DNA from: Ancylonema sp.
Taxonomy: Eukaryota
Length of the DNA stretch: 64,000 nt
Assembly: GCA_050230475.1 (NCBI GenBank)
Contig: JBFLGF010000173.1
Coordinates: 1-64,000, forward strand
Direction: 5' to 3'
Positions within the stretch are counted from its first letter, which is position 1, and each line of letters opens with the position of its first letter. Made by a program: the position numbers and the translations under genes. Positions 338 through 54,400 of the stretch are shown in pieces. A model generated the notes under the pieces. It saw nothing but the letters and a program-made list of their open reading frames with translations. It made no database searches and was not told where the DNA came from.

Positions 338-407
338 AGTGTGTTTGGATATTTCAAGTACGTGAAGCCACTGGGTTTTTGCTAATTTCTTCACATTCTC
401 CGTGTAC

Positions 408-12213: not shown

Positions 12214-12898
12214 ATGAAGCCGGCAAAAAACCCTGTGTTCCACAAAAGATCAAAGCACATTGAAATCGAATATCACTCCATCACGGAGAGGGTTGCCAAT
12301 AAGAAAATTGAGTTGAAGTTTGTGAAAAGTGAGGAGCAGGCAACTCACATGCTCACCAAGCTTGTTTCTGTTAAAGTATTGAAAGCAAATTGTACCTTGG
12401 TTGTTTTGGTGTATGAGTAGGGAAGTGGATAATTTCGATATGAGAACTTATCATTTTTGGAGGGGGGGGAAGTTTTCAGAGAGGGGGTGTTAGTTTTTAA
12501 GGGTCTGTGAACTTTAGTCTTTAATATCGATTTTAGGGGCTAAGTTTAGTTTTTTCGAGTTTGTCGTTTTGCCTCTCGATATGATTATGATGTTACATTG
12601 AGCCACCTGGGAGCGTGTCGATAAGAGTAGGAAAGGTATCGATAAGAGTAGGTGACTTGGCACAATACTTGACTACGATAGGTGTTGACTTGTTAGTAAA
12701 CTAGTAGAGATCTTTGACTAGGAGCGGGCATGGATCACACTCGATTGTACTGAGTGTGAGCCTACATGCACAATTTTGCAATCAATCAATCTATCTCAAA
12801 CTTGCACTTTTGTTGTGTGTTTGTAAAGCTGTGAATGTGTGCTTCAAGTGTGTGAAGTTTGTTACTTCTTGCATCGATGGTAGAAGATAGCAACAACA
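12214..12898 (+). mobile_element. Copia family-1 3' end: RNase H C-terminus, PPT and 3' LTR (12488-12898)
   Basis: NPVFHKRSKHIEIEYH...MLTK, PPT AGAGAGGGGG, and a TG...CA LTR. Confidence 0.85.
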
Positions 12899-13967
12899 AG
12901 TGTGTTTGGATATTTCAAGTACGTGAAGCCACTGGGTTTTTGCTAATTTCTTCACATTCTCCGTGTACCATAGTTGGTCCCGATGCATCCCAATTCCCGA
13001 TCTAGATTACCGCTGGATCACAACCGATCCGGATTGGCGCGTGAACGGATATTCTGATCGGATCGGGCCCAACAAGGAAAAAATAAAAGAAATAAAAATA
13101 TGTTTTTGGGTTTTACGCCTTAATGGGTGCTTATGAACATTCTTATCACCCATCGATTTTCACCAAGTGTTCGACGCCTCCAATCTGGATCGGCGCTGGA
13201 TTGGGTCCGATCGGGATTGGCGCGGGATCGGAACTTCCCGATCGGATTGGAACCAACTACGCCATGTACTGACATTCGGGTCGAAGGTTGCCCTTGGTCC
13301 TCTCGCGAGTTATTTAACTCGAGTAACCGAGCTCCCTTTGTAGATGGCATCAGCAAAGGAAAGAAATAGCTTGTATTAAACATACGCTTCTTATGATCAT
13401 CGTCTCCTACCAAAAAAAAAAAAACGCAACATTGTCTGAAGTGATAAAATGTAAAGTCTATAATTGGGTCCCGGACGCGTCGATCCCGGACGCGTCCGGA
13501 CTTTGTCCGGCCCCGGACGCGGCCATGACGCGTCCAAAGATCCGTGGACCGTATGGGACCTAACAAAATAATAATAATAATAATAATTGAACTCATACAA
13601 CTATCGAGGTTCCCTGGATATGGTTTTAAGGAATCAACGGTGTTTCAACATGAGGAATGGAATGTTGTGACGCTTTCTACTCGCCCACGCCACTTTCGTA
13701 CTTGGAGCTCTGTTTTTGGTTGGGGCGTTTGGATCCGGGACGTGTCCCGGACGCGTCCGGAAATCCGGACCGTCCCGGATCTTAGTACGGTGTCGTGAGC
13801 CTCGGAGAATTAGCATGGTTTGTGTTGCCACCCAACAGTCCAAACTTTCACGCCACAAGGGAGTCAGTATGGCAAAGTTCGGAATATGTTACTTGTTGCA
13901 TCCACTTCACGTACATAGAAAAGGGAGAGCGGAAAGGAGCAAAAGGAGTACCATTCCCTAGTTCTCT

Positions 13968-16900
13968 CTATCTATCTATCAATGCCTCTAGGTAGTCATC
14001 GATGTGTGCGAGACACGGCCAGTGATCGGTCCTCATCCGCACTAAAGTGGACCATTCTTCCACCTCCAATCGAAGAAGAAGATGGTAGCGTGGAGGAAGC
14101 ACAATCATCAACTCCAACCTCCCCAACCACCCTACTACACCCCCACCGCTCGTTGCCAGGTCCCCCACTTCTGCCCCCAACCCCCTTGCCTCATCCACCT
14201 CCCCCTCCCGCGCCTCCCACCCGTCGCCGTGGCCTCCACACCATTCTAACGAAGGCAACCTCTCACTCCCTCTTCCTCCTCCCTTTCCCCACACACAGTG
14301 CCATTGACGCCCCCCCTCCCGCACCATGTCCACTAAACCAGCTCCCTCGCACAAAGTCACAAACTCACTCACCTGTTCCTCCACGGCCGCCACCACCTCC
14401 TCCGCCCCGACTTCAAGCACCTTCACAGACTCCGCGCCTGGGACCCAACGGATCTCTTCACCCACCTCCCCCCCCCCATCCTCCCCCAACAACGTCCACA
14501 GTGCCGAGAACAACGAATGGCGCAACGATGTCTCCCTGCCGTCCCCCAACCCGAGTAAGGAAGGTTTGAGGAAAAGGTCCTCCACCCCCACGGCCACACT
14601 CTCTAGAGGGCCCTCCAACGCCCCTTCCCCCCCCCCCCCAGTGAACTCGGTTGTGATCATAATGAGCGCAGGAATGGGGTGATGGGGGGACAACTCCATG
14701 ACCACAACCACTCCCTCCGCCTCCTTCCGCAAATAGGGCACGTGGATGGAGGGGATGGGTCCATACAGTCCACTCCCCGTGGCAGTGAGGTGGAGCACCA
14801 TTCCGTACAGTGCATCCTGGTGAGCCCACCTTCCCGACCCTCCCTCACAGAAGTGCAGGGTGCAGGGGAGGTGGATCTTGGCGCCCACCCCCTCCCCCTC
14901 CTCCTTCCCCACCCTCCCTAGGTATGCCTTGAGCAGCGCTACGTCCTCATGCCACCTGTCTCCTCCTCCTCCTCCCCCATTGGTAGGGGGGATAGGGGTA
15001 GGGGTGGGTGTGCCCACCTGGTTTGGCACGAGAATGAGCTCCCACTGATGGTCAAGGAGGAGGGGGTGGAGACGGCGAACTAAAAGGAAGTCTTTGGGTT
15101 CAGACAACCCCACACCATCATCATCATAACCATCATCATCGGTATCTCCATTCTTTTCCTCCTGCCCGGATCCTGGGGGCAGGTCCGACAAGATTTCTTT
15201 CCTTCGTCTTCCTGGGACGCGTGTGAGTAGATGCAGGTAGTGACTGCACCAGAAACACCCCCCCCCCATCCCCCATCCCTCAGCAGTCAGAGCAGGCAGA
15301 CCAACGTAGTGCTTTGCCACCCTCCTACCTGGCTGTGTCGCGTATATCGAGGTCAGGATAGGAAGCAGCGATAGAGTGCAGGAGAGAAGTCAAGGGGCCC
15401 ACCAGGCGCGAACTTGGGTGGGTGACCATGGCAGTTCGGCAAATGGAGAGGAGGTGCGTGCCGCGCCACCAAACCCCCCCCCCCCCCCCCCCCATTCGCA
15501 CAAACTCGGCGATGAGTTCCAGAGTCGTTTGTGGCGCCATGTCCCCCCCCCCCACCAACTTCTCAAGGAGGAAGAGGTAGGGAGGGAGGTGGGGGGGTAG
15601 GGGGAGGGCATTCTGCATGGCAGCCATGAGTCGGAACCCCATCCGTGTGTGGGAGTGGGAGCAGCAGGTGTGGAGACGAGAAAGGAGGAAGAGGAGGGAG
15701 GGAAGAAGAAGAGGGCCACGGGGGAGACGGAGTTCAGAAATAATCTCCACCTCCACTAACGAGTAGAGGGAGTGGCTGCCAGCTGTCAAGAATCTGTGCA
15801 TGGTCTGGAAGTAGAGTGCCTCTTCGAGGCTCCCCCCTGTTTGGTGTCTGAACCCCATCAGGCATTCACGGGTGCACTCTACTGCCATGGAGCCCCACCC
15901 AGCCTCCCCCCCCCGTGATGAGGCCAGCGCCAGCGCTTGAAGCTTGGCGGCCTTGAGAGAAAGAGGGTCGAAAAGATGGGGAAGGACGGGAGGCACGCTC
16001 GCCTCCCCACCCATTTGCCAATGGACGGACAGGTGGCGGAACAGGAGAGGCTGGGAGGGGTCTTCTGATAGGGGAAGAGAGTTGGAAGGGGGAGGCCCCA
16101 GCTGTGCATGCATGTGGGCAAGAGCGGCTCGTATCATCGGGCTGCCACACTCACTCAACCCCTCCAGGTAGAAATTGTGGCGGAGGTCCGCCCCCCCCAG
16201 CCCCAGGCGGAGGGTGAGGGAGGTGAGACCAACCAGGAGATCCACCATGGCGGCTTCAGTGGACACGTGGCAAAGATCAAGAAGAACACCGCGAGCTCGA
16301 CGAAAGTCCTTGACAGCTGGCAGTCGACACATGACAAGAAACAAGAAGGGAGGAACGTAAGATGGCGTTCTTGTGCCCTCCCCCCCCTCCCCCCCCCCAC
16401 CCTCTCCCTACCTGATGCTGTGAGCTCTTGCTGTGGAAACACTCCCACCTCGCCAGCTGGCTTGGCGCCCCTACTGGCAGACCAGTAGGGGGGGAAGGTG
16501 AAGGGCAGCAGGGGCTGTTGTGTGGACAGAAGGTTATGGACACCTCCGCCGGATGCGCGACGAGGAACCGTAACAGACACCTCGTTGGGGGGCAGAAATA
16601 GATAGTTGCCAGCATGCTGCAGACAGGCCAGCAGCAGCAGCAAGTAGGACTGACCAGGGGACCCCCTCTCGGCCCCCGCCAGATTGAGCAGGTGTCCGAT
16701 CGTGTGTGTGAGCATGCACGCCCAGGTGGTTTCGATCATCCTCAGGGCGTCACAACAGGCGGAGCGCACCACGCGGTCGGCTGCCTGGTTACAACGGCTC
16801 ACTGCCGCCAACAGCAACTCAATCAAGGCTTGCAGTCCGTACGGATCGGTGACTACGGAGGAAGACTCGATGAAGAGGACGGTGGTGAGGGAGAGGAGGG

Positions 16901-17210
16901 GGAGGCGGAGGGCGGGGGGGAAGAGGGAGGAGTCGGGGGGCGCCGATAGGGCCGCCTTGAGGGTCTCCAAGGCAAGGGCGAGATGCGTGTGAGGTTCGGG
17001 GAGCAGGTGCGCCAAGCAGTGCTCCTCCACAAACTGACAGAGCTGGGCTTTGTGGGACGTGTCCTTGTCACGCGCAAGATTCTGAAGGGCGTACGTGAGC
17101 AGGGCGGGTCCTGGGTACCCTCTGGCCTCCCCTTCGGAAGAGGCACTAAAATCCCGGAAAACTTTATCCCAATTTGTGGCACCCCCCTTGGCGAGAAAAG
17201 AAATGTCCAT
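13968..17210 (-). CDS. AP5B1: AP-5 complex subunit beta-1, copy 2 (intact); introns 16317-16411 and 15244-15328
   Basis: N-terminal WDKVFRDF...ALQNLAR, WWRGTHLLSICR, YPDLDIRDTA and the C-terminal LPPRYHLLLRLEV...TLVRMRTDHWPCLAHIDDYLEAL typical of plant AP5B1. Confidence 0.85.
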
Positions 17211-18074
17211 TCCCGATGAAAGGGCGATGGTGCAGATGGACGGACAGGATTGATCTCAGAGTTGGTCTCACATGCAACGTCCAAGCTGGAGCTGCTCAAA
17301 AAAAGACGAAATGCGATCCAGTTGCGTCGGCCCAGCGGGATCCATGCGACGGACCATATGGAAGGGTAAGAGGATGAATATGTTTAGAAGAAGCGACCAT
17401 AGCGAAGTCCCAGGGACTAAAGGGGGGATTGAGATGGAGAATTGGCTGACGAACTGACCACGTGGCGACCAAAGAAGTGACTGCAACTGTACAGATGTCC
17501 TCATAACCTGCGGGCTGTCTGCATCGAAGGGTTTTTCTTCATTTCGTTGGTGAATTGAAATGGCATCGTGGCCATGTCGAGCCCGTGTTCAATGCGTGTG
17601 CAGGTTTACTACATGCGTGTGGAGTCAAAAAAAAATAAAAAATCTTAGTTAAAAGCCATCATAGCTGCCCAGTTTTGTGCGGGATCAGTTATAACGTCGG
17701 CCGTTGTCAACACGTGGCAAGTTTGCAGGAGGAAGCCAGCACTTTCGTTCCGAAGATGCGCCGGACTACGCGCGACAATATCCCTCACGTGTGAAAGACT
17801 CGGTCAACATTTTGAGCCGCGACAGAACGGCACTTACGTATGGGCTCACATGGGGCTCAAATGTTTCCAAGCCGAGACTAGGGTGTCCGGAAAGACATCC
17901 GTAGTTGCCGCAAATGCTTCTCGAGTACACCCAACACCAATTATGTAAAATTCGGGTCCCTGCTCTTTGCGTACTCGGAATGTTAGAACAGAAGGCCACG
18001 GCTACTTTTTAACGGAAGAGTGGCACATTTTGAAGAAGTGAAGTGGTGGTGGGGCCCTGATGTGATTTGATGGA

Positions 18075-19817
18075 ATGGTCAGTTTTCAGTGGAGACTGAA
18101 TCAAATGGCTGCCACGTTGAACGTCTATCGAATTGGCGTGAGCCACAGCGATGTTCACAACAGCTATCGCAAGCGTATCTCAGCTCCATCATCCACTGAT
18201 GTCTATCGTCAGTTCTGCCCTATTTCTACGCCCGTAAATAAATTCCACCGGCTCTCTTCATCCGCACAGTCCCGGATTTCAAGACCTTGCTTTACAACCG
18301 TGACTCCACATTCGGACCTCAGTAGATTCAAGCCGGTTCCACGACCCTGTCCACTCCTCATTTGTGTCAGGCGTTCAAGCAGATCAAATGAGGTGGCGAC
18401 AGATGGCAATGTCCAGCAAGGTCCAACTCTGCCCTGTGGTTCGTTTGTTGTGCCGTTTCCCTGCTCCGTCCAGCCACCGATATGTAGTGCAGACACAACC
18501 TTTGGATGCCGTTTGCATAGCACCTACCTTTCAACTCCACGCCCCGAATGCATTGTATCAAATATTTCCTCTGCTCTGAATTCCTGCCGTCTTTCTTGGA
18601 TTGGCTCCAGAGATCTACGAGATCCGACGGAGTGTCGAATCTCTGGCCGCCCGGATCGATCTCATTGATTCCACAGCCGATCTTCCCAAGCAGCAGGCTG
18701 TGGTGGCTGACTTGGAGCGCCAGGTGGCAGCCTCTGATTTCTGGGACGATCCGAGCCGTGCGCAGTCTCAGATGTCCCACCTGACCTCCGCCAAGCAGGT
18801 GACGGACGACGCGCGCACCTTCCTGTACAAGGTGGAGGACGTGCGCACTATTTTGGACCTCACCTCGTCCGAGGCCACCCCGGACACCTCCCTTTTGGCA
18901 GAAGCTATCTCCGTGTTGGCGCAACTGGGGGCGGCGGTGAGGGGATATGAGGTGGCGCAGCTTCTGGGGGGGGAGTACGACGACAAGGGGGCTACGGTTA
19001 CGGTTACGGCCGGGGCAGGGGGTGTGGATGCTCAGGACTGGGCCGAAATGCTGGTCCGCATGTACACCCGCTGGGGTGCCAAAAAGGGATTCAACGTGGA
19101 GGAAGTGGAGAGGACAGACGGAGAGGAGGCGGGCATCAAATCCGCCACGCTGCAGATAGCAGGGGGGCGGTTCGCTTACGGTTACCTGAAGGGGGAGAAG
19201 GGGACCCACCGCCTGGTCCGCCACTCTCCCTTCAACGCCAAGGGTCTGCGTCAGACGTCGTTTGGCGGTGTGGACGTGATGCCTATCCTGGAGGACGAGG
19301 TGGGGGCGGAGGTGGAGGTACCGGAGGAGGATCTGGAGTGGAGTACCATGCGGGCGGGCGGCAAGGGAGGGCAGAATGTGAATAAAGTGGAGACGGCGGT
19401 TCGTGTCACGCACGTCCCAACGGGGATTGCCATCCGCGTGCAGAGTAAGTGGGGCAGAGGTTGGGGGGATGGGGGGGGCGGTATGGATGTGGGTCTTCAG
19501 GGGGGTTGGTGGTGGGGGTGGGTGGACCAGTTTCCCGTTCTCAGTTGCAGACCAAGAAGACTGCCTTGGACATGCTGAAAGCGAAGCTGTACCTCATTGC
19601 CCGAGATCAGCAGGCAGCAAGTGTGAAGGAGATTCGGGGGGATGTGGTAAAGGCGGAGTGGGGGCAGCAAATACGGAATTACGTTTTCCATCCCTACAAA
19701 CTCGTTAAAGATGTGCGGACAGGAGTGGAGACTTCAGACAGTGGGGGGGTGATGGATGGGGACTTGGACCCATTCATTGAGGCGCATCTGAGGCACCAAC
19801 AGAATTCACAGAGCTGA
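18075..19817 (+). CDS. prfB: Peptide chain release factor 2, copy 2 (intron 19445-19530)
   Basis: Same ORFs as copy 1 with GGQ and SPF motifs. Confidence 0.88.
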
Positions 19818-20472
19818 TGGAAAAGTGTGATTGTGTCTAGTACATAAAGTTGTGGGATTCGAGGGTCGACTTTTTCGTTTTGCCGCAAATTTCATACTTC
19901 AAAGAGTGTTACAACCATCATTCTGCTGTTTTTTGATCGATGAAATCGGACACACATTACCCCAGCTGGCACATAGTGAGAGGGAGTTGTCAAGGCACCT
20001 ACACAGTGGTGCAAGTCAACGCGTATCTCCAACTATGTACACTCCACGCGACGAACCTGTAGCTCCCGCCTACTCCATCTCAAGCATCCAAGTTTGACTT
20101 TTGTAACAATAGCGAATATAATTTGTGGTGTTATCGCGTCATAAAATAATGCTCGCTGCTCACCACTCGGTACATTCATGCCCACCAGTTTTCGCACAAT
20201 GAGGCGCTGCTTTATTTTTCCCATCTTCTTAGATGATGTCGACTAATGTCCAAAAATGGTTCACACAATCTATGATTCCTTCTCTTTTGTCACACCACAC
20301 ACACAAGCTGTTAAAAGCATGTGCACACAATTGTGTGTACTTGTTTGCACAGTCTCCCTCAAGTATCTAAGTCGATACAAGTATGTACAAATGTAACCTC
20401 CTTGTACAAAACTATGGGCAGATTTCCAACCAAACAAATATGGTTGGGGCCAGGCCACGTGCCCTCACTGAC

Positions 20473-21680
20473 TCATGCAATTCGAGTTGAAGTGAGAGAC
20501 CGCCTAACTTTCATGTACGGTTGTGGAAGGGTGCCTCCGCGTGCGGTGAGGAAAGTGTACAAGTAGGCCGCTGCCGAGGCACACGTGGTTCCCGCACTCC
20601 CGAATCTGAACCAGGGGGGACGAGCAAGGTAAGCAACGCGGTATTGCTTATGGTCCCTCAGCTTTTCACCCACTCTCTGAGGGTTGGGAAGAAGTTGGGA
20701 GGGGTAGTATGCGACTGACATGAGAAGTGGCATGATGTGCATCGAGTCCTCGCATCCGCATGCTGGCAGTCCCAACGCGGCCCCCAGTAGCGCCAGCTGC
20801 ATGCCCGTGTTCACCTTGCTGATCCACAGAGGCTGCATGAGAGCAGCGCCACCAATCCCAGTCGCAAAAAACTCTGCCCCGCTCTTCCACTGTCCAGACC
20901 CACAGGGAGATAAGACAGGTGTGGTTCCTGGGCAGGTGTGGGAAGTGTAGGCTGCGTCCGTACCTTCCATTGGAGTGCCCTGGCTCTGTGCATCACTGCC
21001 CCCAGGAGCAGCCCCGAGTCACGCCCCAACATGAGCGCCACCAACCACCCTGAGACGAAGAGGAGACGAGGAGAAAGGGAGGGAGTGAGTAGGGGGGGAA
21101 GGTGGGTGAGAGGGTGGGGAGGGGCGGGTGCTTACAGGGCAACAGAGCGGCGTGTAGCATCGCCATGACCACGCAGCCAATGAGCACCTGGTCGGCTAGA
21201 GGGTCGAGATACGATCCCAAAACGGAATTGGTGCCACGCCGTCGTGCAAGGTACCCGGCGAACTGACCATGCCCCCCCCCCGCCACACCGCACCTTCGGA
21301 GCAATACCGTCAAACAACACTCCCCCTGTAGCCTGCCTAGTAGAGTACCCAAACAGACGCCCCCGCGGCCGATATGGCGATGAAGGCAGTGCTGAAATGC
21401 CCCTGGACCACCAGACTGCCCCACCCCACCCAGCACCCCACATCGCCCCCCCGTCAGACCTCGAAATTGCGTTCAAGGGTGGAGAATCTCACAGTGCGAT
21501 TGGAGGGCCGGATAAAAGTCGAGCCATAGAAACCGCATTCGGCCAATTGAAGACCTCATTACGAGTCCAATCGCTGACTGGCCTTGCCTGGAGACTTGGA
21601 CCAGCCGCAGAGAGGGATTCGGGAACGCGTGTGTCGTATGGAGGGCTGATGATCTTCAGACGATTGGGATGGGTTGCAAC
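20473..21680 (-). pseudogene. CLS: Cardiolipin synthase copy 2, 5'-truncated (lacks promoter, start codon and the first ~411 nt of CDS)
   Basis: Matches 7910-9117 of copy 1, then switches to Copia gag at 21681. Confidence 0.8.
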
Positions 21681-24490
21681 AAAATATGGATTGCTGAAGC
21701 GGCTCTACTACGGACATAAAGAGGCACCCGGAATCAAGTGGATCTGGGCAGAGGTTGGTGTGGACGAGCTCGACGACAAGAAAGAGAAAGGAGTGAAGGA
21801 TGCAAAATCGCTAGTGACCAAGGCAAACTATGTAAAGTGGTCAACTCAACAAAATTATTCAAATCGAGGCAGAGGTGGAGGCATCGACAGAGGTGATGGC
21901 AGAGGCGCTCGCAGGGGAGATTACAGTGGAAATCGAGGAGGCAGATTTTATCGTGGTGGTGGAGGAGGGAAAGGTGCAGGAGGAGGCCATTCTTGCTATA
22001 CTTGTGGTCATACTGGTCATTTCAGCAGAGACTATCCGAGAGAGGATGAGACTTGTGATTATTGCGGTGCAATCGGTCGCATTGAATTTACCTGCTTTGA
22101 CAAAAAGAATTAGGCTCCCCGAATGCAGCGCAAGAATCAACAGATAGGTCGAAAATCCGCACATGTGAGCGAGATCGATGAGGGAGGTGATTGTGGACAT
22201 GGTGAAATGGTGGTCGGAGAAATCTGCGAAGGTCGTGTGGGCGAAGGGGATGAGGAGAGGGATTTTTTGTGGGATGATGGATCCAGTCATCATTCAACTG
22301 GACAAGAAGCACATTTCAAAACTCTCGTCGATATTCCTCAAGAGATCGTAATGCATCATCTTGTTGGCAGCGTGCGCATCAAATAGTGGGGGAGAGTTGA
22401 GCTTGAAAGTGAGGGTGAATGCGGTGGCATTACGCTGAGAAATTGTCTATACATTCTAGGCTCAACCTCTTTTGTGGCCAGAAAGCGAGAGAGCAAGGGT
22501 GGGAGTACGATTTCCAAGCTCTAGCAGGTGGCATAATTTCAGTTTACGAAAAAAAACGGCAAGCAAATTTGCACAATTCGAGAGTCAACGACTGGTCGCC
22601 ATACCTTGATATGCACACCAGTTCGTCATGATTGACAAATTGAAGAGGAAGTAGTCGTTGCGGCTGTCGATGTCAAGATTATGCATTCACGTATTGGTCA
22701 CGCAAATGAGCGAGTTCTCATAAATTTTGCAAAAACAGATCTGGTACGTGGCTTGGAAGGAGGAATTTGTGGTGTGCTGCAAAACTGTGAGGGTTGCAAG
22801 CTAGGACAGCGCATGATCGACCTCATCCAAGCACGGAGTTTGGAGTAGGGGAAAAAGTTTGCCTGGGTCGAATTTCGGTGGATTTGGCGGGATCCTTCTA
22901 GCCGGCGTTGCTTGGTGGCGGGATTTGGAACATGGTGATTGTCGATGAGTACAGCCGAAAATCTTGGGTGTAAATTTTGCGATTGAAAAGTGACGCTACT
23001 TCTCGACGAAAGAATGGATCGCAATATGGCAGCGACATAGAGGAAAGGAGGTCAAAAGTCTAAGGTCTGACAGAGGTGGGGAGTTTATCGATGGTGGTTT
23101 TCGATTGTGGATGAGAGGGAAGGGGATAAATCATGAGCCGACACCTTCGTTTACTCCTCACGGCAACGCTATTACTGAGAGAATGAACATAACCTTGCAA
23201 GACAGAGCTCGTTCGATGTTGAATCACATGAAACTTCCTCCATGTTTTTTGGGTTGAAGTCATCTCTCATGCCTCTTATCTTTGAAATCGCTGCCAAGTG
23301 ACAAATCTGCCAAAGACGCGAGAGGAAATGTGTACTCGTAGCACTCTTGGTGTCGGTCCTCTTTGCTCTTATGGTTGCAAAGTTTATGTGCGACTAGAAA
23401 AACGAGACCGACAGGGTAAAATGGCACCTCTGGCATGGATTGGGGTTCTCGTTGGCTAGAATTTTGAGGGTCCCTGTCAAAGGGTATAGGATCTGAAGAC
23501 GAACAAGGTACACAATGTCGGCCATGCTCATGCAGACTTCGACGAATCTGTCGTTGCTGGCTGGTGCGAGGTTAGAATATCGGAAAGAAATGATAAAATT
23601 GTGAAATCGACACTGCAAATGACATGGCATGGCTAGATATGGTGCCAGAAATACTGGCTATCAAATGAACTTGGCTTTCTGTCGATGAAGCGGTTCCCGA
23701 CGCTGTGGGAAATCCTTTGCCACAACTTTAGGCATCCCCTCTTCCTTAGACTGACAAAATTCCACAGCTGGTGAGTAATTCTAGTGGGGGTAAAAGTGAT
23801 CAAGATCTTTTGGAGGTCGGGCCAGAGTGGTACCATGATGAGGCGACATCAGAAAATCCAATGCTGCACTTTGCAGAGGATTAAAAAAAAAAGGCTATTA
23901 ATGTTGCACAAGATGCTGCTCGGAGGTCAGCACGTAAAAACAAAGGTGTTGCAGCAAACATATTTGTTGCAGGTCTTGAGGTTGACTCAAAAAATCGAGA
24001 GAGTGTTCAAGAAGCTCTGAGTAGTCCAGATAAAGAAAAATAGAAAGCAACAATGAATGCAGAGATGGGCAATTTTGAGGAAAATGAGGTCTTTCGTCTC
24101 GTCGATAGGCCAAAAGGCAAAAAAGTGGCCAAGTCCAAATGGGTGTTTCGAGTCAAGAAAAATGCTGATGGGTCTGTTGAAAATGACAAAGCAAAAGTGG
24201 TCGCTAAGGAATTCAGTCAGGTCGAGGGTGTTGATTACGATCATACATTTTCTCCAACAATCAGGTTTGAAAGCATACGTCAGTTGATCGCATTAGGTGC
24301 CTCCAAGGGTCTGCAAATGCATCAAATGGATGTAATGACAACATTTTTGTATGCCCCGCTAGTAGAAAAAGTGTATATGGAGCAGCCAGAGGGCACCTGC
24401 AAACGGTGAGGAAGGAAAAGTGATGCTGCTACTACGTTGTCTGTATGGCCTGAAATAGGCACCTCGTGGCTGGAACCAACATATTGATGA
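21681..24490 (+). mobile_element. Degenerate Copia family-1 internal region (gag C-terminus, protease, integrase, RT N-terminus)
   Basis: Zinc knuckle CYTCGHTGH, protease FLWDDGSSHH, integrase SDRGGEF, and RT KWVFRVKK...QVEGVDYDHTFSP...HQMDVMTTFLYA. Many stops and frameshifts. Confidence 0.9.
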
Positions 24491-29383: not shown

Positions 29384-31340
29384 TTCCGTTTCGATCTCTG
29401 TGTTCCAGTTGCACATAAACTTTGCAACCATTAGAACTAAGGTGGTTGACATTTGGAGTGCTACCCGTCCACATTTCTTCAGGTATCTTTGGCAGATTCG
29501 TCACATGGCTGCGATTTTGGAGGTAAGAAGCGTGAGAAATGGCTTCAACCCAAAGATCATGATGAATTTTCATGTGAGGTAGCATCGAACGAGCCTTGTC
29601 TTGCCCTGCCCTATTTTACAAAGTCTTGTTCAGTCTCTTTGTGATGGCATTTGCCTGAGGGGTAAAAGGAGGAGTAGGCTCGTGATTGATGCCTTCGCCT
29701 CGGAGCCACAATGCAAAATCACCATCGATAAATTCACCTCCCCTGTCAGACCGCATATTTTTTACCACTTTTCCACTTTGTCGCTGCCAAATCGCAATCC
29801 GTTTTTTCAGTCGAGGAGTTGCGTCACTTTTCAAGCGCAAAATTTCCACCCAAGATTTTCGACTATACTCATCGACAACCGCCATATTCCAGATCCCCCC
29901 CCCAAGCGACGCCGGTTGGAAGGGTCTCGCCAAATCCACCAACATTCTTCCGAGGCAAACTTTTTCCCCTGTTTCAAGCTCTCTACTCGGATGAGGTCGA
30001 TCATGCGCTTTCCTTAGCTTGCAACCCTCATAGTTTTGCAGTGCACCAAAAATTCCACCTTCAAGGCCACGCATTATATCTCCTTTCGCCATATTTATGA
30101 GGACCCTCTCATTTGCGTGACCGAAACGAGAATGCACGATGTTGACATCGACAGCTGCAACGATTGCTTCCCCTTCGATTTGTCGATCATGGCGGAGTGG
30201 TGTGCAGATCAAGGTATGGCAACCAGTCTTTAATTCTCGAATTGTAGAGATTTGCTTGCCATCTTTCCTGTAGACTGGAATTATGCCACCTGCTAGACCT
30301 TGATTTTTTTTCTCCCACCCTTGCTCTCTCGCCTTTTGGCCACTGACTAAACCCACTCTCATCCTTGGAATGTATATTCGATTTCTTAAAGTAATGCCTC
30401 CACATTCTCTCCAGTCTCAACTATCGCCCACTACTTGATGCGCACACTGCCAACAAGATGATGCATGAACATTTCTTAAGGAATGTCGACGAGAGTCTTG
30501 AAATCTTCTTTTTGTCCAATAGAATGGTGACTAGATCCATCGTCCCACATAAAAGCTCTCTCCTTATCGCCTTCACCATCAAGTCCCTCACAGATTTCTC
30601 CGACTACCATTTCACCATGTCCACTGTCTCCACTCTCATCGATTTTGCTCACGTGCAAATATTCATCCAGCCTGCTGGCCTTCGCGCTCCATTCGAGGAG
30701 CCAGATTCTTTTTTCCGAACAGTTAAATTGAATGTGACCGAGGGCTCCATAATACTCGCAGCTATCATCTTTTCTTGGACAGTCCCTACTGAAATGACTT
30801 GTTATACCACAAGTGTAGGTGGCATGACCGCCACTTGCTCCTCTCCCTCCACCACCACCTCAATCACTTCTGCCTCCTCGATTTTCGATGTAATCACCTC
30901 TGCCAACACCTCTGCCTCCACGACTATCACCACCACTACCTCTCCCTTCATTTGAAAATTTCTGACGTGCATCCCGCTTTGTATAATTTGCTTCAGCTAC
31001 CAACGCTTCAACATCTCTTTTGCCTTTCTCCTTGTTATCATCTAGCTCATCGAATCCCATTTGTGCCCACACCCAAGTGATTCAAGGAGCCTTTGCTTGC
31101 CCATAGTACAACTTTTTGAGCATGCCGTACTTTGTCCTTGACATTCCCGCGAACAATGTCATGACCTAATCCTCCTTACTGACATCATACTACTAATGCT
31201 TGCATGCTCTGATGATCGATATAAATTCTTCTTGATGTCTCAAACCAACATATTTTCATCGATCTTGAAAAAACTTAGTCTCTAATTTCCAAACTGCTTC
31301 AACTCAGGAGTCACTTTGTCATATTCATGACGTGCCAGAT
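29384..31340 (-). mobile_element. Degenerate Copia family-1 gag-protease-integrase
   Basis: VMTLFAGMSRTKYG, FMWDDGSSHH, HSRFGHANER, VVDEYSRKSW, MRSDRGGEF and PFTPQANA. Confidence 0.9.
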
Positions 31341-33974: not shown

Positions 33975-35180
33975 CAACTTCAATTTCAACACGAGATTTT
34001 GTCGTCGATTGGCAGCAATGACGACATAATTCAAAGTTTGAATAACAAACCAAAACGTTCGTTTTTAAATCATGGCAACCATCAAGTTGACCTTGGTTTT
34101 CTAATAACGTACAACCCCATAGTTGGTTCGGTCCATCCGTCCGCGTCCCTAGTGCGGACGCTCCATCGAAACATATACTGCCCCAAAATCGACTAAGTGT
34201 TTGTGACGTGCGTGCGTGGGTCTGCTTGCATGTAGAGATTGGGCTTGTAGATAACGGCGGCTCATGTTGATGAATTAATGGATCATTTTTCTTTATTTTT
34301 TGCACATTGCACAAGCCTTAGTCATAAACATAATAGTTGTTTACGGATTTTTCATCCGCGGTAAACCTTTCAAAATCCAGAAAGGAAAATAAAAAAATCA
34401 TACTACCGCCGTTCCGGCATTCAAGCCTAAAAAGACGAACCCCGGTCCGGAACAGGGACCTCGGAACCCCGGTCCGCTGATCCGTGCAACTTTGCCGGCC
34501 CCCCTCAAAAAAAAAAGAGGAAAGTTTGTAGTAACAACATCCAAAGCAACATCCTCGGACCCACGGAGTACCGATTGAGGAGAGCTTATGTCGGTGACTC
34601 CGTGTTTGTGTGTCTAAGCGTTTGTGCATTTTTGCGTTTGTGCGTTTGTTTTGTGCCTTTATTTGAATTGTAAGCATGATGCCAAATCGGTGGTCGAGGT
34701 CGCATTTCCGCATGGATGCAAAAATGAATGGGGGAAACTTACGCGTGACACACCTCGAGGGGGAAGAAAGTGTCAACACCGGATGAATATAACCAAGGGT
34801 GACTCCTACACTGAACGACTTTTGAAACTGAAACTTTAAAAAATCAAAGGGAAGCACAATTTCAACGCCGAAGTGGACCATGCAGAGTGCCGCAAATTGT
34901 TTTCACTGTTGATTCCGGAGGGGAATGAGCACACACATGATGGTTTCTATCCGTGCTCTATACACCATCGATTCACGCACGTGTGCACGAACACCATGGC
35001 ACCATCAAGTGGAGATAGTGTAAAGTAACCATTCTTCTTTGACTGCTTTCTGTGATGAATTCTTTGGTCTCCTTCGTCCAAGACCTGAGTTGAAGGCCAA
35101 ACGATAGCCTTCTCCACGCTGCCACCCATCCCTCTACCCTCATCCCCCATCCTTCTCCTCCTTCGATTCCTTCACTCCAC

Positions 35181-37017
35181 TTAACGCCACAGCTTTGCCA
35201 CTTCCTTCCCAACCCCTGTCCGGCCAGGTGTCCCCACGGCACGCTGCCACGTGGCCCCCATCGTGTGGAGGGCAGCATCCACAAACTCCACCAGAGAAGT
35301 GGGGGTACCGTGCTTCAGCCGCACAAAAAAAAGGCCCTCACTACCCCTCCCCCCAACCGCGCCACCCCCCCCCCCTCCCGCTGCCCCCTCTTGCCACCCG
35401 ACTTCAGGTCCCCAGGCTCCCTCCCTCCAACTCGTCTGTGTCCCCTCCTCACCATTACGATACAGAGGAAGATTCCCGAACTCACCGGACGTGACTGCCA
35501 TCATCCATTTCGTCAACAGCTCGTTGACCACTTGTGGCGTTTCGTGGTGTGGGCAGTGCCCCGACTCCAAGATTTCGTAATACACGGCTCTTGGCACGGC
35601 TCGTTTGAGTCTCTGCCCCCACAGCGGCACCACCCATGGGTCGTCTCGGCCGTAGACCAAGCAGACAGGGAGGGAAGCAGTAGAAATCCTGAAACAACTC
35701 CCCATACACATCGTCACCCACTCAAAACTGGGATTGGGGGGTTGGGGGTTGAGGGTCGGTACCTTGCCAGATTTTGGTCAAACGAGTATTCGCTTTTGGG
35801 GGCGAAAATGATGGACGCAAACGCAGCAGCAGCTGCTGGATGGTCTGTGGGCGATTTGATTTGGTGTACCAGACCATCATCCACGGCGGACTTGTGAAAG
35901 TACACCAACTGCAGCAAACGGCGGATGGTAGAAGGATGGCGGAGGGCATCCCACCTGCACCAGATAACACCTCCCCATCACAACCTGGCCGTATGTTCCC
36001 CTCACCCTGTGGTAGGTCTCCCCCTTACCACCTCCGTGCGACCCCCCTTGCAAGCCCCGGCACTGGCAGCTGCCCCCCCCATAGCCCCAACCGCGCTGCC
36101 CTCGGGCTCATCTTGGGGTTGGGGGTGAAGGCCCAGAAAGGGGTCGCATTCATAAGTACCAAACTCATTACCAGCGAAGGCTCACTGGCCGCCACGTAGG
36201 CTCCGATGTACCCCCCCAACGAGGTCCCACAGATGTGAGCGGGACGCTGGATGACGTGGCGAAGGAAGTCCACCACCTGATCCTTCCAGACGTCCACAGA
36301 ATACACCAGACCCTCCGCCCAGGGTTCGGGGGCGGGCCCAAACCCCCACTCCCACGGAGTGACGGTGTTCTGTGGGGATGGCGGGCCGTGGAGGGGGGCG
36401 GGGTCGTGCGTGGGCCACGATTCTCCTTGTCCAATCAGATCCATCGCCCACACTTGGTGCGTGGCGCTGAGGGCGGACAGCTGGCGGTGGAAGTGGAAAG
36501 AGCCAACTCCGAAGCCAGGGAGCAGGAGTATGGCAGGGAGGGAGCTGGGGCAGGGGCGGAGGGAAAGGCCGAATTCGATTCAAGGAGCGGTAGGAGTCGG
36601 TGGTAAGAGGGTGGAAGTGGTTTGGTAGTTTGGTCACCTGTTCCCCTCGCCCGCCACCTCATAGTGCACCCGCCACTTCTCTTTCCAATCCCAGAAGCCG
36701 CTTCGGATAGCCGCATCGCCCTCCGCCGCTGCTTCCGTACCACCACTTACAGCAGCACGGGTTCGTCTCCACGTGCCACCTGGAGGATCATTTTCTGTGC
36801 AAGGAAACGCACCTGCCAAGTGGTACCTAAACAGTGCGCTAGCTGGACTTTGATGGCAAGATGTGGAGATATTTGGCAGAGCTCCATGGTAGCGGGGCTG
36901 AAAAAATCTTGGAGGGTGGGATTGATAGAGGCGTGTCTGCTTCGTAGGGAGGTTGGAAGGGTGAATCTGGTGCGTGATGTATACTCGTTCACTTCCTAGG
37001 TTAACTCCGACCGTCAT
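35181..37017 (-). CDS. PPH: Pheophytinase (alpha/beta hydrolase); introns 36545-36637, 35955-36028, 35689-35762; start at 37017, or at 36887 with a short extra intron
   Basis: LLPGFGVGSFHF, WAMDLIGQG, GxSLGG nucleophile elbow, PPH-type NATPFW motif, YGRDDPWV and GHCPH. GT-AG introns restore the frame. Confidence 0.85.
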
Positions 37018-37346
37018 TCTCGGACGGTGCTTTTGGGTCGGAAGGGTTGGGGAAAAGGGCATTGAGGTTGGCAAGCGCGATTATTTCGGCGGTCGTTGGT
37101 GGAGGGATGGTGGGGAGAGGGGGGAGTTCGTCCGCCTCAGACAGAGGAATGGTCTGCAGGAAGGGCGTGGGAGAGAAGAGATGGGTTAAAAAAAGTGCTA
37201 GGTACATTGGCAAGACTAAATCCAGGTTAGTCGGGAGGCAAAAGTGAAGGTGGTTGAGTGAGTACCAGATCTGGTTTGTAGATGTTGTGCACTACGGCAG
37301 CTCCGGCAAAAAGGGAGGAAAATGCAACGGCATAGGAGCGGAGCAT
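37001..37346 (-). CDS. UQCC6: BRAWNIN/UQCC6-like (DUF4516) mitochondrial microprotein, 77 aa; exons 37266-37346 and 37001-37153
   Basis: MLRSYAVAFSSLFAGAAVVHNIYKPDL|TIP matches the recalled family motif AGAxVVHxxYxPDLTIP. A GT...CAG intron at 37154-37265 joins PDL to TIP. Confidence 0.75.
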
Positions 37347-37467
37347 TGTGTTCACCGTGAATCTCCAGTGCCATTCACGCCGGATGGTGAGAATCGATGG
37401 CTCGAGACACAAGAACGGACCGCAGTTGAACCAGTACACCCAGTAGTACCAGTACCCACAGCGCCCA

Positions 37468-37575
37468 CATAGTTGGCTTCGCCCCGGGCGGATATTTTTT
37501 CGTTCGGGAAGCCGCTCGAACGAGCCCGTCCGTTGCGAAAAGCGGGGCGAATTTTCGGGGCGGAGCCCAACTATG
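37468..37575. mobile_element. Short CATAGTTGG-type MITE (GCCCCG motif) just upstream of the BRAWNIN-like start
   Basis: TIR CATAGTTGGCTTCGCCCCG / CGGGGCGGAGCCCAACTATG. No clear TSD. Related copy at 63726-63836. Confidence 0.55.
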
Positions 37576-37738
37576 GTCACTGACCATGGTCAATCCGCAA
37601 CCCCACCCAACTCCGCTACTCCGGTCGGGCTGCGCCACTCCCGCCCCCGAGCAGGCCAAACCCAACGAACCCAACCCGCCGCACGGAGTTGCGAGCTGCG
37701 TGGAGTTGTGGAGTTGCGTCGGGGTTGCGTGTTTTACT

Positions 37739-38560
37739 AGGGAGATGTTACGCGCAGACTGGCAACGACTGCGCGCAGAACTAAATCCTGCGCGCAGAAT
37801 GCGTAATCGCGCCCAGTCGGCCATTCTCGTACCGGCTGGTGATTTGGCCGTTCGAAACTTACCGTCAAAATTAATCACATAACCCGGACTGCACACGTGT
37901 AACAATATTGCCACATCAGCGAAACGAAGCATGAGGTTCGGTAGCCTCCCTTTCTACTCAATTCGGCCTCTACTGCACCCTGATGCTACTAGCCGACCTT
38001 CCACTGCGGGCTATTGTCATCCGCAGCCCTTCAATTTAACCGACCTGAGCGAATATGCCACCAAATTGAAAGCGGAGACACGCTCTGTGATACTCACTTT
38101 CAAATTGTATTGAAAAAAAATAACGAAAAATGTTTTTGACGCCATATTGTAGCACAGTATATGAAACACTATTATGGCAAGAAAGCATGCGCGAACAGCA
38201 TAACAGGAAGGATTAAAAACGTTTTTATAATTTATTTTTTTGGAAGATAAAGAAGAATGTCAGAGAAACGTATTCATCGTGAAATTTTGAAGAAAGGTGG
38301 GGTATGCACTCGATGCGGATAAATCGTGGCTGCCAAGGAAGGTAGTAAAGAGAGCGAATCGGGAGAGGCCGTGGGTCGGATGAAGCTGGTTCACGTACAG
38401 CGGCAATTATGCCACGATAAACAACCGAGATACTACCAAAAAAGAATCACGCCAACATCGATTTTACGGGTAGTACCGGGAGAGTTCGACGGCAAGTTTT
38501 GAACGGCCAAATCACCAGCCGGTACCCTAAGTCTGCGCGTTCTGCGCGTAACATCTCCCT
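37739..38560. mobile_element. Non-autonomous TIR element
   Basis: TIR AGGGAGATGTTACGCGCAGA plus a second internal inverted block (37829-37870 / 38484-38525). TTACT on both flanks. Confidence 0.7.
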
Positions 38561-45303: not shown

Positions 45304-46924
45304 ATGAACAGAAAAACAAGCTCTAGTACAAAAGTATCGAAAGCGGAGTGCGGGGGATTGCATGAAAATGCCTTTCTTAACTTGCAAACCGACCACCTGG
45401 TTCGAAGTCTGCAGCTTTTGGATACCTGGTCTGTCTTCGCGTTCGCTCGAACTTGCAAGCAGAATCGTGATGTGACTTTCTCAGACGCTGTCTGGAAAGT
45501 TTTTTGTTACAGAGAATGGGGGGCTCACTGCTGTGATCAGATTCCGCCAGGTGTGAAACGAAGGGCAGGATGGTTGGGACTCTGGGGTGACATGGCAACT
45601 ATGGAACCTCATGCCGACGTGGCATGAGGTTCGACGATTGGGCCCAAGACCCAATGTGAGGGCGAGCCACGCCATGAGTTCTATGCACGGCAGTGTGTGT
45701 ATCTATGGAGGTGGCTGCGATGGAGGTATGGTGGGGGCGTGCATGTGGTCATGTGTGGGTTGCTGCCACGTGGTTCTCACTCCCGCCTCCCGTTGGCAGG
45801 GCGCCATCTGTCGGACATGTGGATCACGCATTCCAGTCCTTTACTCGTATCCGAGGGCCCTGCCTCTGGGATCCAGTGGCAGCAGGCCGCTTTGCAGCAA
45901 CCTAGTGGTCGGTTCCAGCTCAGCTGCACGCTTATGGGCGAGCGGGTCGTGGTGTTCGGCGGAATTGACGAGAATGGAAAACGTGAGTGCCCACTGCTTC
46001 CTGCTCCCTGCTCCCTGCCCCCTGCCCTCACCCCATCTCCTCTTTGTGGCCCCAGGATCCGACGAGACTTGGGGGCTCAATTGTGCTCATCTGGGTGAAG
46101 GTGGTGAGGGCAGTTGGCAGCGAATTGATGCGGGGAACGCACCGTCCGCAAGGGGGGCACACGCAGCCGCATGGGGGGGGGGTTCCAAAATGATCGTCTT
46201 TGGGGGCATCAATCAAGAAGCAGAGCGACAGAATGACACCTGGATGCTAGATCTAGACACGCAATCCCTGACATGGCGCCAGGTGGCAGTAGGGTCCCCC
46301 CTCCCTGAGGCACGCTGAGGCTACTCGCTGACGTGGGTGGGGGAGGGGCGAGTGGTGCTGTTTGGAGGAAGGGGGGCGAACCTGAATGTGCTTCAAGACA
46401 CTTGGATCATGGAACTGCACGACCACAAGGGGGGGGAGCCCAGTGAGCCCAGTGGGCGCTGGGTTTGTTTGGATAGCGGTACCCTCCCCTGCCCTGGTCC
46501 CCGTGCAGGCCACTCTGCCACCCCAATCCTGGGCGGGCGCGTGGTGGTGGTGGGGGGGGAGGATGAGAAACGTGTCCGCCAAGGCGACACTTGGCTGCTG
46601 GATCCACGGGGGGCGCCAAGTGGAGCAAGGAGGAAGAAGGGGCGGCGAAGGGGAGAGGGTTGTCAAGTGGTAGCGGAGGATGGAGTGGCAGTCGTACCGG
46701 GGGGGGGGGAGGGGGAGGTGCAACTGTCGTTGCCCCCCCTTTGGAGGCCGTTGGTTTGTGAGGGGGCTCTGCCACCCAGGGCGTATCATGGAGCGTGTGG
46801 GGGGGGGGGTGGATGTGCTCTGATGCTGTGGGGTGGAATGGTGGATGGGGAGAGGAAGGGGCACAGCGCAGCGGGATTAACCTTTGACGACCACTTCTAT
46901 GTGTTGCGATTGGCGAGGACGTGA
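45304..46924 (+). pseudogene. F-box/Kelch-repeat protein with a frameshift (~45607) and in-frame TGA (46316-46318); introns 45726-45799 and 45983-46055
   Basis: F-box-like VFAFARTCK...SDAVWKVFCYREWG. Kelch repeats RASHAM...YGGGCDGGRHLSDMW, RGAHA...VFGGI and RAGHSAT...VVGG. The lesions could be sequencing errors. Confidence 0.75.
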
Positions 46925-51479: not shown

Positions 51480-54400
51480 GCGTGCGAAAAGCCGCGTCAA
51501 TTGTACTAAAGCAAAGAGTCGCATTTCTGAACTGCCAGCTTCCGCTGTCGGTTTACGCTGTCTAAATCTCAACATGCTCTTTTGCAAATCGTTATCCTGT
51601 TGCAATATCTGTGAATTCGTGTATTCTGGAATCGTTTAATCTATCGCTATCAAGTGTGTCGTTTCGCTTTTAATATTCCTTGTAATTCTCTGCAAGCTTC
51701 GCGTCGCTTCATTACTCGTTTGCTTGTACGTGTTGTCGCATCTTAAGTAACTGAAAAGCCGTGTGCCGTTTTGCATACGCATTGTGTGAAATTATGCCGT
51801 AGTCAGAATGATCGTTACCCTTGCAATATCGTGACCTTTGCAAGTTGTTGATTTCGAGCCGTTTTGCAGGCGTCAGAAATCGTTACAAGTTCGCTGCACC
51901 GTTTCGTGCAAGCTGAGCCAAATAATTCACCCTTCGAATTGTCTGCACCCGTTACTAAATTCGTGATTCGTTTATTCACCGCAACGCTTGATTTATCGTG
52001 TCCATAATCGTGTGCGTATTTTGAAGCATCTAATCATCAATCATTCTGCAATCCTTGTATAAATTCTTTAGTTATTTACCTTGAATCCCATCACCAGTAG
52101 CTGTCGCGTATTGTGAAGTGATGTGTTAAGCGATTCTCGATTAACCTCGATATTGTTTTACTAGACCTCCCATTACTTTGCGTTGGGTTTTTCTCAGCTT
52201 TCGGTGAGTAGTAGCTACGGCAAACTTCGTTGATAAGTCACATACAGCGCTTGAATTACATTATTGTAATGTCATTGGGGACTCAACCTACACCAACTAC
52301 TCTAAACTGACCAGCGGAAGAGCTTCTTTACATCGAGGTCTCCAAGGAAAATTTTACAGAACCCGATTAAATTTGTCCTGATAACCCTTCTCATTGATTG
52401 TTTATCGTATACCATTGCCTCTACAATAACCCAAGGGACACCTATTCAGAAACCCGAGATGGAAACCTACCATCATCATTTCTGGACAACCAAGGCTAGT
52501 GAATCTGAGTATGCTCTGAGTGACATACAATATGAGACAAAACTCTTAAAGCTTGCTACTAATATTTCTGACGACTACAGGATCTACAAATTCGGTCCGC
52601 TACAACTCATGCAGAAGAAAACTAAGGACGAGTTTCGACAACTCCCTCCAGACCTCAAGCGACGCCGCGACGAACATCTGGCGGTCATTCGAGTTCATCG
52701 ACAACGAGAGTGGAATATAATCCAACCATATCATTTCACCATAGACTTGGCGAAAGGTGAGGTAACCTGGAAAATCGGGTGTTTCACCAATTCTAGCGAC
52801 AACTTTTAGCACCTCCAGCAGCACAACCAATCCCGGCATACACCAATACGTCGGTTACGAGTACTACTCAGTACCTGCAAATGACAAAGGAAGAACACCA
52901 AAGGTACGTGCAAGAAGCAGCATATGCCATGGGTTTCGGTATTTTCAACTCACTAATGAGCCAAGAAAAAGTAAAACCACGAGACGAAGCATCGACAGTC
53001 CTCATTAAAAAGGCTGTCACATTCGCACATGTAGTTGCGAGCTATGCACCAAGTCCCATCATCCTCTCACCACCCAAAGGAGAGGAGAAATGTGTGGTTT
53101 AATTTCAACCAAGTCATACATGGCAAGATTGTCCACGAGATCACATGACCAAAGAAGAGTGGAAAAAACTAAAAGCTGGCATTCGAGTGGTTTTGCAGGG
53201 CAGAGTACCAGCAATTCACTCCACGGTCAAACCTGAAAATAGTAAACCAGTCGGAGAGCCAGACGCACGTATTACCACAAATTGGACGGTGCCTGTGATT
53301 GAGAAATACAAACAAATCTTCTTCTTCGAAGGAGTCGAGCCAACGGGAGATATAGTGCTCGATAGTGGGTCAGGAGATTGCATGATCAGCGTCACCATGG
53401 CAAAACAACTCGGCATCACCAAGGCAGATTTAGATATTGGCGAGGAATATCTCGCCTCTTCGGGACAAGCCAACACATCATTGGGTGTAACCAAACGATA
53501 TTATGAGATCACCATTGGACAAGGCAAGTTCAAATCCACACTTCCGGTCCGTCTCACCTTGTCACCCTCAGACAAGTACTCGATTCTTTTTGGCAATAAT
53601 TGCATTAATCCCATTGGCGGGATCGTCGATAGTTGGGGACATAGATTCCACAATCGAGTGGACTTGAAAGTCAAAGGTGACAGAATGGTGTTCGTTCCTA
53701 TCATCACTCATGGGCTCAACGCAACTAAAAAGTTCAACCTCGATACCTTTGAGGTGGCCTACATGAACCAGGGAATTTCAGCAGACACCACATACACCAC
53801 CATGGACACCTTTCTTAAGAACGAAACCATGTTCGCCACAAACGAGGATGAAGATATTCTTGCAAATTTCGAATTCATGGTGTCACAAGAGGGATATGAG
53901 AAATGTTTATCTCGGCAGGTTTATCGCAGAAAAAGGACCTATCGATTTTATTTTTGCAAGGTGGGAGTGCCAAATGGTCAGCAAAGCAGGAAACTAGCAG
54001 GGATATACGGACGAACAATTCCCGTACTTCTTCGATCTGATCCGCTTCATTAACCCACCTGATCAAAGTCCAGCCTTACCCACCCATCTTCGTATTGGAG
54101 AACTCTTACCCTTTTGACGACTTTCCGAAAGGAATCCAAGACACGACAGTCCTCGTCAAGTCATTTCTCGGATACCCAGCAGTTTTCGATGCATGTAGTG
54201 TTGGCACTAACGCTCACAGATTACGATGCCTCTCGACGAATTTCATACCACCTCATATCCTAGAATTGGAAATTCCCGCGGTTCCATTGAAATCCTTGGC
54301 CAAAATTCTGGACAAGAACCATCGACCCACAAGTGTCACCACCAATGACACACCACCCCGCGCGTCGGGGGGGGGGCACCTATCATACCCCCGAGCAGTA

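Follow-up and report, generated by a model that had tools for sequence, protein, structure and literature searches.

A candidate bicistron of overlapping BRAWNIN and pheophytinase reading frames in a probable zygnematophyte alga

This work describes a locus at which a gene for a BRAWNIN/UQCC6-like microprotein and a gene for a pheophytinase (PPH) lie in close succession within a 64-kb window, the whole stretch of DNA that was analyzed. Both open reading frames (ORFs) are on the minus strand, and the features that bear on their arrangement are as follows, in the direction of transcription:

37372 to 37374, minus strand: out-of-frame ATG located 28 nt upstream of the BRAWNIN ATG, giving a 41-codon upstream ORF on the spliced RNA if transcribed
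37266 to 37346, minus strand: BRAWNIN/UQCC6-like exon 1, 27 codons, with ATG at 37346 (acaATGc), a hydrophobic segment and a Pfam DUF4516 match
37333, minus strand: weak out-of-frame ATG, the one further ATG between the BRAWNIN start and 37062 on the spliced RNA, opening 13 codons
37154 to 37265, minus strand: BRAWNIN intron, 112 nt, GT..AG, phase 0 after a PDL motif, placed from sequence
37001 to 37153, minus strand: BRAWNIN exon 2, 50 codons, then TAA at 37003 to 37001
37001 to 37062, minus strand: stretch that belongs both to the BRAWNIN ORF and to the open PPH frame, with a length of 62 nt if counted from 37062 or 17 nt from 37017
36638 to 37017, minus strand: PPH exon 1 (preferred model), with an acid-poor, Ser/Thr-rich N-terminal extension and the conserved W-x-W core start near 36693 (tblastn)
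36898 to 36899, minus strand: strong-looking acceptor (CAG after a pyrimidine run), 11 nt upstream of ACCATGG
36885 to 36887, minus strand: ACCATGG, the best Kozak context of the region and a rival PPH start, out of the PPH frame (46-aa ORF if unspliced)
36545 to 36637, minus strand: PPH intron 1, 93 nt, a tblastn gap bounded by GT..AG
36029 to 36544, minus strand: PPH exon 2, alpha/beta-hydrolase core with nucleophile motif GTSLGG (Pfam Abhydrolase_1, E 8e-16)
35955 to 36028, minus strand: PPH intron 2, 74 nt (tblastn)
35763 to 35954, minus strand: PPH exon 3 (tblastn), matched exactly by an RNA contig over 35762 to 35936
35689 to 35762, minus strand: PPH intron 3, 74 nt, removed in one RNA contig (depth 4, run X1)
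35181 to 35688, minus strand: PPH exon 4, carrying the motifs GRDDPW and GHCPH and ending in TAA at 35183 to 35181

The first-pass annotation had named the two genes, their strand and the BRAWNIN stop position, all of which stand. BRAWNIN exon 1 matches the DUF4516 profile (E 8.4e-11; 41.8 bits against a curated Pfam cutoff of 27), and the small ORF begins with a hydrophobic anchor (best 17-residue hydropathy, 1.58, at residues 6 to 22). In total it encodes 77 aa (234-nt ORF), compared with 81 aa for the Mesotaenium homologue. A GT donor occurs at the same position in intron-bearing algal BRAWNIN homologues, and the spliced Mesotaenium sequence P0106 reads PDL-TIP. Upstream of BRAWNIN, the ORFs at 37932, 37587, 37470 and 37374 gave no credible family match, and neither a SMIM4-like ORF nor a TATA box was found. 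The same region holds one TGGGCY word at 37569 and three GCGCGC-type repeats at 37776 to 37812 on the minus strand. Inner-membrane location and a role in complex III assembly have been shown for BRAWNIN in animals (PMC7066179, PMC9681215). At this locus, BRAWNIN would presumably be imported into mitochondria and PPH into plastids.

The core exons of PPH were fixed by tblastn with six homologues. Read from the ATG at 37017, the gene has four exons and encodes 531 aa free of internal stops, including GTSLGG, GRDDPW and GHCPH, which we take to be the Ser, Asp and His motifs of the PPH catalytic triad. Exon 2 is 55% identical to its top homologues, and of 44 homologues the best 14 all come from streptophytes, with Mesotaenium, mosses, gymnosperms and Closterium at the head. 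A quick tree of 45 rows, built with no intentional outgroup such as CLD1 or another paralogue, places the window PPH inside a streptophyte clade of 15 rows (SH-aLRT 99) that comprises Mesotaenium, Closterium, mosses, seed plants and a named Andrographis pheophytinase-like protein. Within that clade it lies outside the land plants (support 96), nearest to Mesotaenium, and a C-terminal motif in its exon 4 is common to Mesotaenium and Closterium. Because of the tree position, the streptophyte homologues and this motif, we conclude from sequence that the window hydrolase is a PPH orthologue and that the host is most likely a zygnematophyte, i.e., a streptophyte alga of the Mesotaenium/Closterium group. 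The host thus falls outside the chlorophytes that the first-pass annotation had cited for comparison. Removal of phytol from pheophytin is a putative activity, assigned from orthology. Relative to land-plant pheophytinase, which belongs to the same clade, the window protein differs beside the nucleophile by an Asn-to-Thr change, reading GTSLGG for the GNSLGG found in 14 of 14 homologues.

How closely the two ORFs abut depends on where PPH begins. The ATG at 37017 (agaATGa) had been described as the only in-frame start of the first PPH exon; it does lie in the PPH frame and within the last 17 nt of BRAWNIN, but a second in-frame ATG (tcaATGc) is present at 37062. The PPH frame is open from 37080 through the BRAWNIN stop to the first PPH intron, so that the ORF spacer is −62 nt (37062), −17 nt (37017) or +113 nt (36887). 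Of 5,000 first-order Markov resamples, 5 to 8% would keep the PPH frame open between these ATGs and 36781, which gives modest support. GC3 by frame showed no preference for the PPH frame in the N-terminal part, and comparison of the candidate N-termini with eight homologues revealed no usable homology (best p, 0.013 to 0.023 over 40 pairwise comparisons). Under the overlap models, 108 (37017) or 123 (37062) residues precede the core motif, and the first 60 include 1 acidic and 10 to 12 Ser/Thr residues. In this they resemble 11 of 14 PPH homologues, with 116 to 186 residues before the core and 0 to 3 acidic ones. The three Closterium models, with 67 to 85 residues before the core, have acidic N-termini. 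For both overlap starts, length and composition would fit a plastid transit peptide.

The alternative start at ACCATGG (36887) does lie 113 nt past the BRAWNIN stop, and the 47-nt GT-AG intron proposed for it (36826 to 36780) restores the frame, but this is one of 17 GT-AG introns that do so. Six of these (32 to 59 nt) leave 45 to 54 residues before the core, nine (77 to 112 nt) leave 30 to 42, and two longer ones leave 19 to 22. All 11 introns placed in the window measure 73 to 114 nt (1 supported by RNA, 3 by homology at the locus and 7 by eye in other genes; two further likely introns that lacked a placement were left out of the set). The overlap model is therefore preferred, though not firmly: it yields an N-terminus of homologue-like length, and 36887 needs either an unusual intron or a short N-terminus. 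On this model the probable overlap of the ORFs is 17 or 62 nt, and start context slightly favors 37017 over 37062. The context of 37017 is similar to that of the BRAWNIN start (acaATGc), that of 37062 is weaker and that of 36887 (accATGg) is stronger, judged with few genes available for a species consensus.

RNA data cover part of the locus. A search with run X1 (5% of words) against 34500 to 38500 returned one exact contig of 207 nt from the 3' part of PPH, where expression and splicing are thus seen; 175 nt of it are identical to the assembly. Within this run, cover was confined to the 3' part of PPH, with none over 36242 to 38500, including the junction between the two genes, a gap that is not counted as evidence here. 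Against positions 1 to 12000, the run gave low-complexity matches only.

The remainder of the window is sparse, the identifiable genes in its 64 kb being a duplicated three-gene block, the BRAWNIN-PPH pair and, some 8 kb from the pair, a Kelch gene. The block, of 9.1 kb, is present in tandem at 1 to 9117 and 12562 to 21680 with 99.7% identity and carries genes for AP5B1, release factor 2 and a CDP-alcohol phosphatidyltransferase. Of the 26 differences between the copies, 22 fall in the first 137 nt. The AP5B1 frames are shifted by two single-base indels, and the 5' end of the transferase gene is missing from the second copy. Either a recent duplication or the serial assembly of two haplotypes would account for the block. 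AP5B1 (minus strand) and release factor 2 (plus strand) are divergent at about 5400 to 5543, with starts that seem to lie no more than a few hundred bases apart. The transferase gene, cardiolipin-synthase-like, spans about 7950 to 9530 (minus strand; Pfam CDP-OH_P_transf), and its motif region, alike in both copies, looks degenerate by eye against what we take to be the consensus. Retroelement remains occur at 24044 to 24409 (RVT_2), 29616 to 30859 (rve, gag_pre-integrase and a zinc knuckle) and 53103 to 54053 (aspartyl protease). The Kelch-repeat gene (45304 to 46924, plus strand) has an apparent frameshift near 45590 to 45610 and a TGA at 46316 to 46318 between two Pfam-matching stretches, and it is either a pseudogene or an assembly error. 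Because of this frameshift and in-frame stop, local assembly errors are possible at the neighboring BRAWNIN-PPH locus as well. With few identifiable genes in 64 kb and retroelement remains between them, the tight spacing of the pair does not stem from a compact genome.

In our judgment, expression of both ORFs from a shared mRNA of some form is likely, and with moderate confidence we favor the specific version in which overlapping BRAWNIN and PPH ORFs share a leaky-scanned transcript. BRAWNIN and PPH would lie on one spliced mRNA; some ribosomes would miss the BRAWNIN start codon and scan on for about 170 to 220 nt (172 nt to 37062 and 217 nt to 37017 on spliced RNA, from the BRAWNIN ATG), and PPH translation would begin at an ATG within the final part of the BRAWNIN frame. 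Since the PPH frame begins 17 to 62 nt before the BRAWNIN stop, there is no room between the genes for a 3' end and a promoter. The first-pass annotation had offered leaky scanning or reinitiation. If PPH starts inside BRAWNIN, leaky scanning is the better fit, and forward reinitiation drops out because both ATGs precede the BRAWNIN stop; short backward scanning is mentioned in PMC11892635. In vivo tests of leaky scanning exist both for algal bicistrons (PMC11892635) and for the BRAWNIN bicistron of Drosophila (PMC9681215). The present locus is not a textbook case: the context of 37017 is no stronger than that of the BRAWNIN start, which has A at −3, as do four other likely starts checked in the window, and which is thus not weak by local standards. 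The 169-nt leader before the second ORF, a short stretch, contains 1 ATG against 1.24 expected.

Comparative support was sought in other green algae. A degenerate pattern for BRAWNIN exon 1 retrieved 59 metagenomic loci, which fall into 23 clusters at 90% identity over 69 nt; loci within one cluster are not independent of each other. A same-strand partner follows BRAWNIN at 45 of 59 loci (14 of 23 clusters). PPH was found at 0 of the 59, among which no locus looked zygnematophyte-like. In 24 loci from 7 clusters (L005, L007, L022, L023, L036, L040 and L059), the partner is an MFS_1/OATP-type transporter, with homology-anchored stop-to-ATG gaps of 14, 43, 101, 118, 138, 140, 145, 179 and 283 nt (L059 being ambiguous). 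BRAWNIN is intron-less ahead of the transporter, and we regard these loci as prasinophyte-like. Most of them combine a weak BRAWNIN context (cgcATGc) with a strong partner context (a/g-c-c/g-ATG-g), a pattern that Duenas et al. 2025 (PMC11892635) tied to leaky scanning and that suits this mechanism better than the contexts at the window locus do. In a further 21 loci from 7 clusters (L010, L011, L012, L020, L029, L035 and L052), and likewise for protein P0153, the partner is NFXL1, with anchored gaps of 12, 29, 30 and 48 nt and gaps of 22, 27 and 91 nt placed by eye in three clusters. The cluster with the 48-nt gap matches the named Trebouxia protein P0074, and the Auxenochlorella gene model RMZ55053.1 joins BRAWNIN exon 1 to an NF-X1 protein. 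BRAWNIN-NFXL1 is a candidate trebouxiophyte bicistron.

The remaining 14 loci (9 clusters plus two truncated members) yielded no same-strand partner with the queries used, five of them having <1 kb of downstream sequence; opposite-strand ORFs at these loci gave Pfam matches in L017 and L037 only. In L011, L054 and L055, the last seven codons of BRAWNIN exon 1 are repeated as a 21-nt tandem duplication. The spliced-type BRAWNIN ORFs P0142 and P0170 lie on Logan contigs of 1,728 and 1,816 nt, which are long for a 150- to 200-nt ORF, and these contigs are possible bicistronic transcripts. Two candidates were rejected: P0212, from a BRAWNIN cluster, is an unrelated beta-barrel protein, and the polycistronic Chromochloris locus Cz01g26120 and Cz01g26110 (669 and 2,370 nt), considered as BRAWNIN-NFXL1, has the NFXL1-annotated ORF first and so is not a BRAWNIN locus. 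Scans of viral contigs with both genes gave no match.

Conservation of the pair in related algae, which the first-pass annotation had named as a check, has a possible counterpart in one of two relatives. In Mesotaenium, according to the source names, PPH (Mesen1/4418, ME000225S03401) and BRAWNIN (Mesen1/4420, ME000225S03412) are on one scaffold, a link that rests on identifiers, which differ by 2 in one numbering scheme and by 11 in the other. In Closterium NIES-68, by contrast, the annotated copies (CLOM_g10800 and CLOM_g13629) are unlinked, their contigs being of different length. With a Mesotaenium gene total that we take to be roughly eleven thousand, placement on one scaffold is unlikely to be due to chance; ordinary microsynteny is an alternative reading. 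To calibrate the gene numbering, the Mesotaenium orthologue of the neighboring Kelch gene was also sought, but the search returned an unrelated protein only. In all, the bicistron idea of the first-pass annotation holds up and is partly supported, having gained comparative evidence from the Mesotaenium scaffold and from the 45 of 59 algal loci.

Several other explanations were weighed. The pair might consist of separate, overlapping transcription units, with a PPH promoter inside BRAWNIN (in its intron or exon 2) and a BRAWNIN mRNA that either ends inside PPH or runs through without making PPH. We consider this unlikely. It would force the BRAWNIN 3' untranslated region into PPH coding sequence, and gaps of 12 to 48 nt recur where BRAWNIN has other partners; on the other hand, the A at −3 of the BRAWNIN start means that leak-through may be low, and in Chlamydomonas partly polycistronic loci are as numerous as exclusive ones (87 and 87; Gallaher Dataset S1, PMC7896298). 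The interval from 37000 to 36640 is free of AATAAA-like motifs, and its one TGTAA is a chlorophyte-type signal. This lack is uninformative, however, because poly(A) signals of streptophyte algae are variable and mostly U-rich (PMC1868727).

It is quite doubtful that PPH is translated from a shared mRNA beginning at ACCATGG (36887), reached through a short intron or through one base missing from the assembly between 36887 and about 36712, with the ORFs abutting rather than overlapping. Besides its Kozak context, this start can call on the strong acceptor at 36898, with possible donors 87 to 114 nt upstream, so that the spacer itself could be an intron; on a 113-nt spacer typical of algal bicistrons (medians of 183 and 40 nt; PMC11892635); and on frameshift-like defects elsewhere in the window. 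Yet it requires an intron shorter than all 11 placed here or else accepts 19 to 42 residues before the core. Restoring one missing base would yield about 60 residues, again fewer than 116 to 186, and the only RNA contig is identical to the assembly over 175 nt.

The functional idea of the first-pass annotation, in which the two genes stay adjacent so that complex III assembly is coupled to chlorophyll breakdown, is very improbable. The shared Mesotaenium scaffold would be in keeping with such coupling, but the annotated Closterium copies are unlinked, the tight partner of BRAWNIN in other lineages is NFXL1 or an MFS transporter, and published algal bicistrons often join small mitochondrial assembly factors to unrelated proteins (Duenas Dataset S5, PMC11892635). 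Least credible of all is a chimera made by alternative splicing of BRAWNIN exon 1 onto the 36898 acceptor, since this in-frame, stop-free join (518 aa, a BRAWNIN membrane anchor before PPH) at a strong-looking acceptor is set against a one-in-three chance of any acceptor being in frame, a 368-nt intron far above 73 to 114 nt, the exchange of a plastid-type N-terminus for a mitochondrial anchor and the absence of a fused BRAWNIN-hydrolase among the 31 longest of 150 BRAWNIN matches.

Returning to the shared, leaky-scanned mRNA, BRAWNIN seems habitually to occupy the first position, ahead of a partner that depends on lineage: PPH here, and NFXL1 or an MFS transporter elsewhere. Because the partner differs by lineage, we think it more likely that a short first ORF with few AUGs shares its housekeeping promoter with the second ORF than that complex III and chlorophyll breakdown are functionally linked. 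Tentatively, we go a step further and propose that BRAWNIN is a recurrent lead ORF that independently took at least three unrelated partners (an MFS transporter, NFXL1 and pheophytinase), and that this locus may be a nuclear bicistron with overlapping ORFs in the algae that are sister to land plants, in which PPH output would be set by leak-through past the mitochondrial microprotein.

Partner switching of this kind is apparently unreported. Neither BRAWNIN as a first ORF nor a BRAWNIN-PPH pair was found in the full texts searched, and a term search of the readable supplements of PMC7896298 and PMC11892635 returned neither the BRAWNIN-PPH nor a BRAWNIN-NFXL1 pair; these supplements hold many unannotated ORFs, so that a listing by bare identifier is possible. 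A bicistron in the Zygnematophyceae would bridge the chlorophyte surveys (PMC7896298, PMC11892635) to land plants. Partner switching also makes it testable whether bicistrons are kept for functional coupling or a short housekeeping ORF simply tolerates a passenger, and BRAWNIN-NFXL1 can be tested at once in long-read data from Auxenochlorella or Trebouxia. In addition, gene callers merge or drop such ORFs, as in the fused Auxenochlorella model, and knockouts or annotation of NFXL1, the transporter or PPH could therefore disturb BRAWNIN unnoticed.

Nuclear bicistrons with a short first ORF, often encoding a small mitochondrial assembly factor, are established in chlorophytes (PMC7896298, PMC11892635). 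The locus described here shares with these green-algal examples, such as TOM22-SDHAF3 (Gallaher 2021, PMC7896298; Duenas 2025, PMC11892635), a short first and a long second ORF, little or no spacer and the involvement of a small mitochondrial assembly factor; its first ORF of 234 nt compares with published medians of 291 to 357 nt. An overlap also has a precedent in Chlamydomonas Cre16.g658250/658245, where the spacer is −103 nt (PMC7896298). The published cases are chlorophyte, whereas this locus is streptophyte, its transcript is predicted and its first-ORF context is not clearly weak. CDC26-TTM3, found in land plants and Chlamydomonas, likewise places a small conserved first ORF before a metabolic enzyme and shows that such loci exist in streptophytes (PMC11892635), but that pair is deeply conserved, while the partner of BRAWNIN changes between lineages. 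Finally, in Drosophila sloth1-sloth2 the BRAWNIN orthologue (sloth2) is carried on a leaky-scanned bicistronic mRNA (PMC9681215). That study describes BRAWNIN as the second bicistron ORF in Drosophila, lamprey, a sea squirt and a choanoflagellate. In Drosophila it stands behind its paralogue SMIM4 and the two products act together; here it would come first, ahead of an unrelated plastid enzyme.
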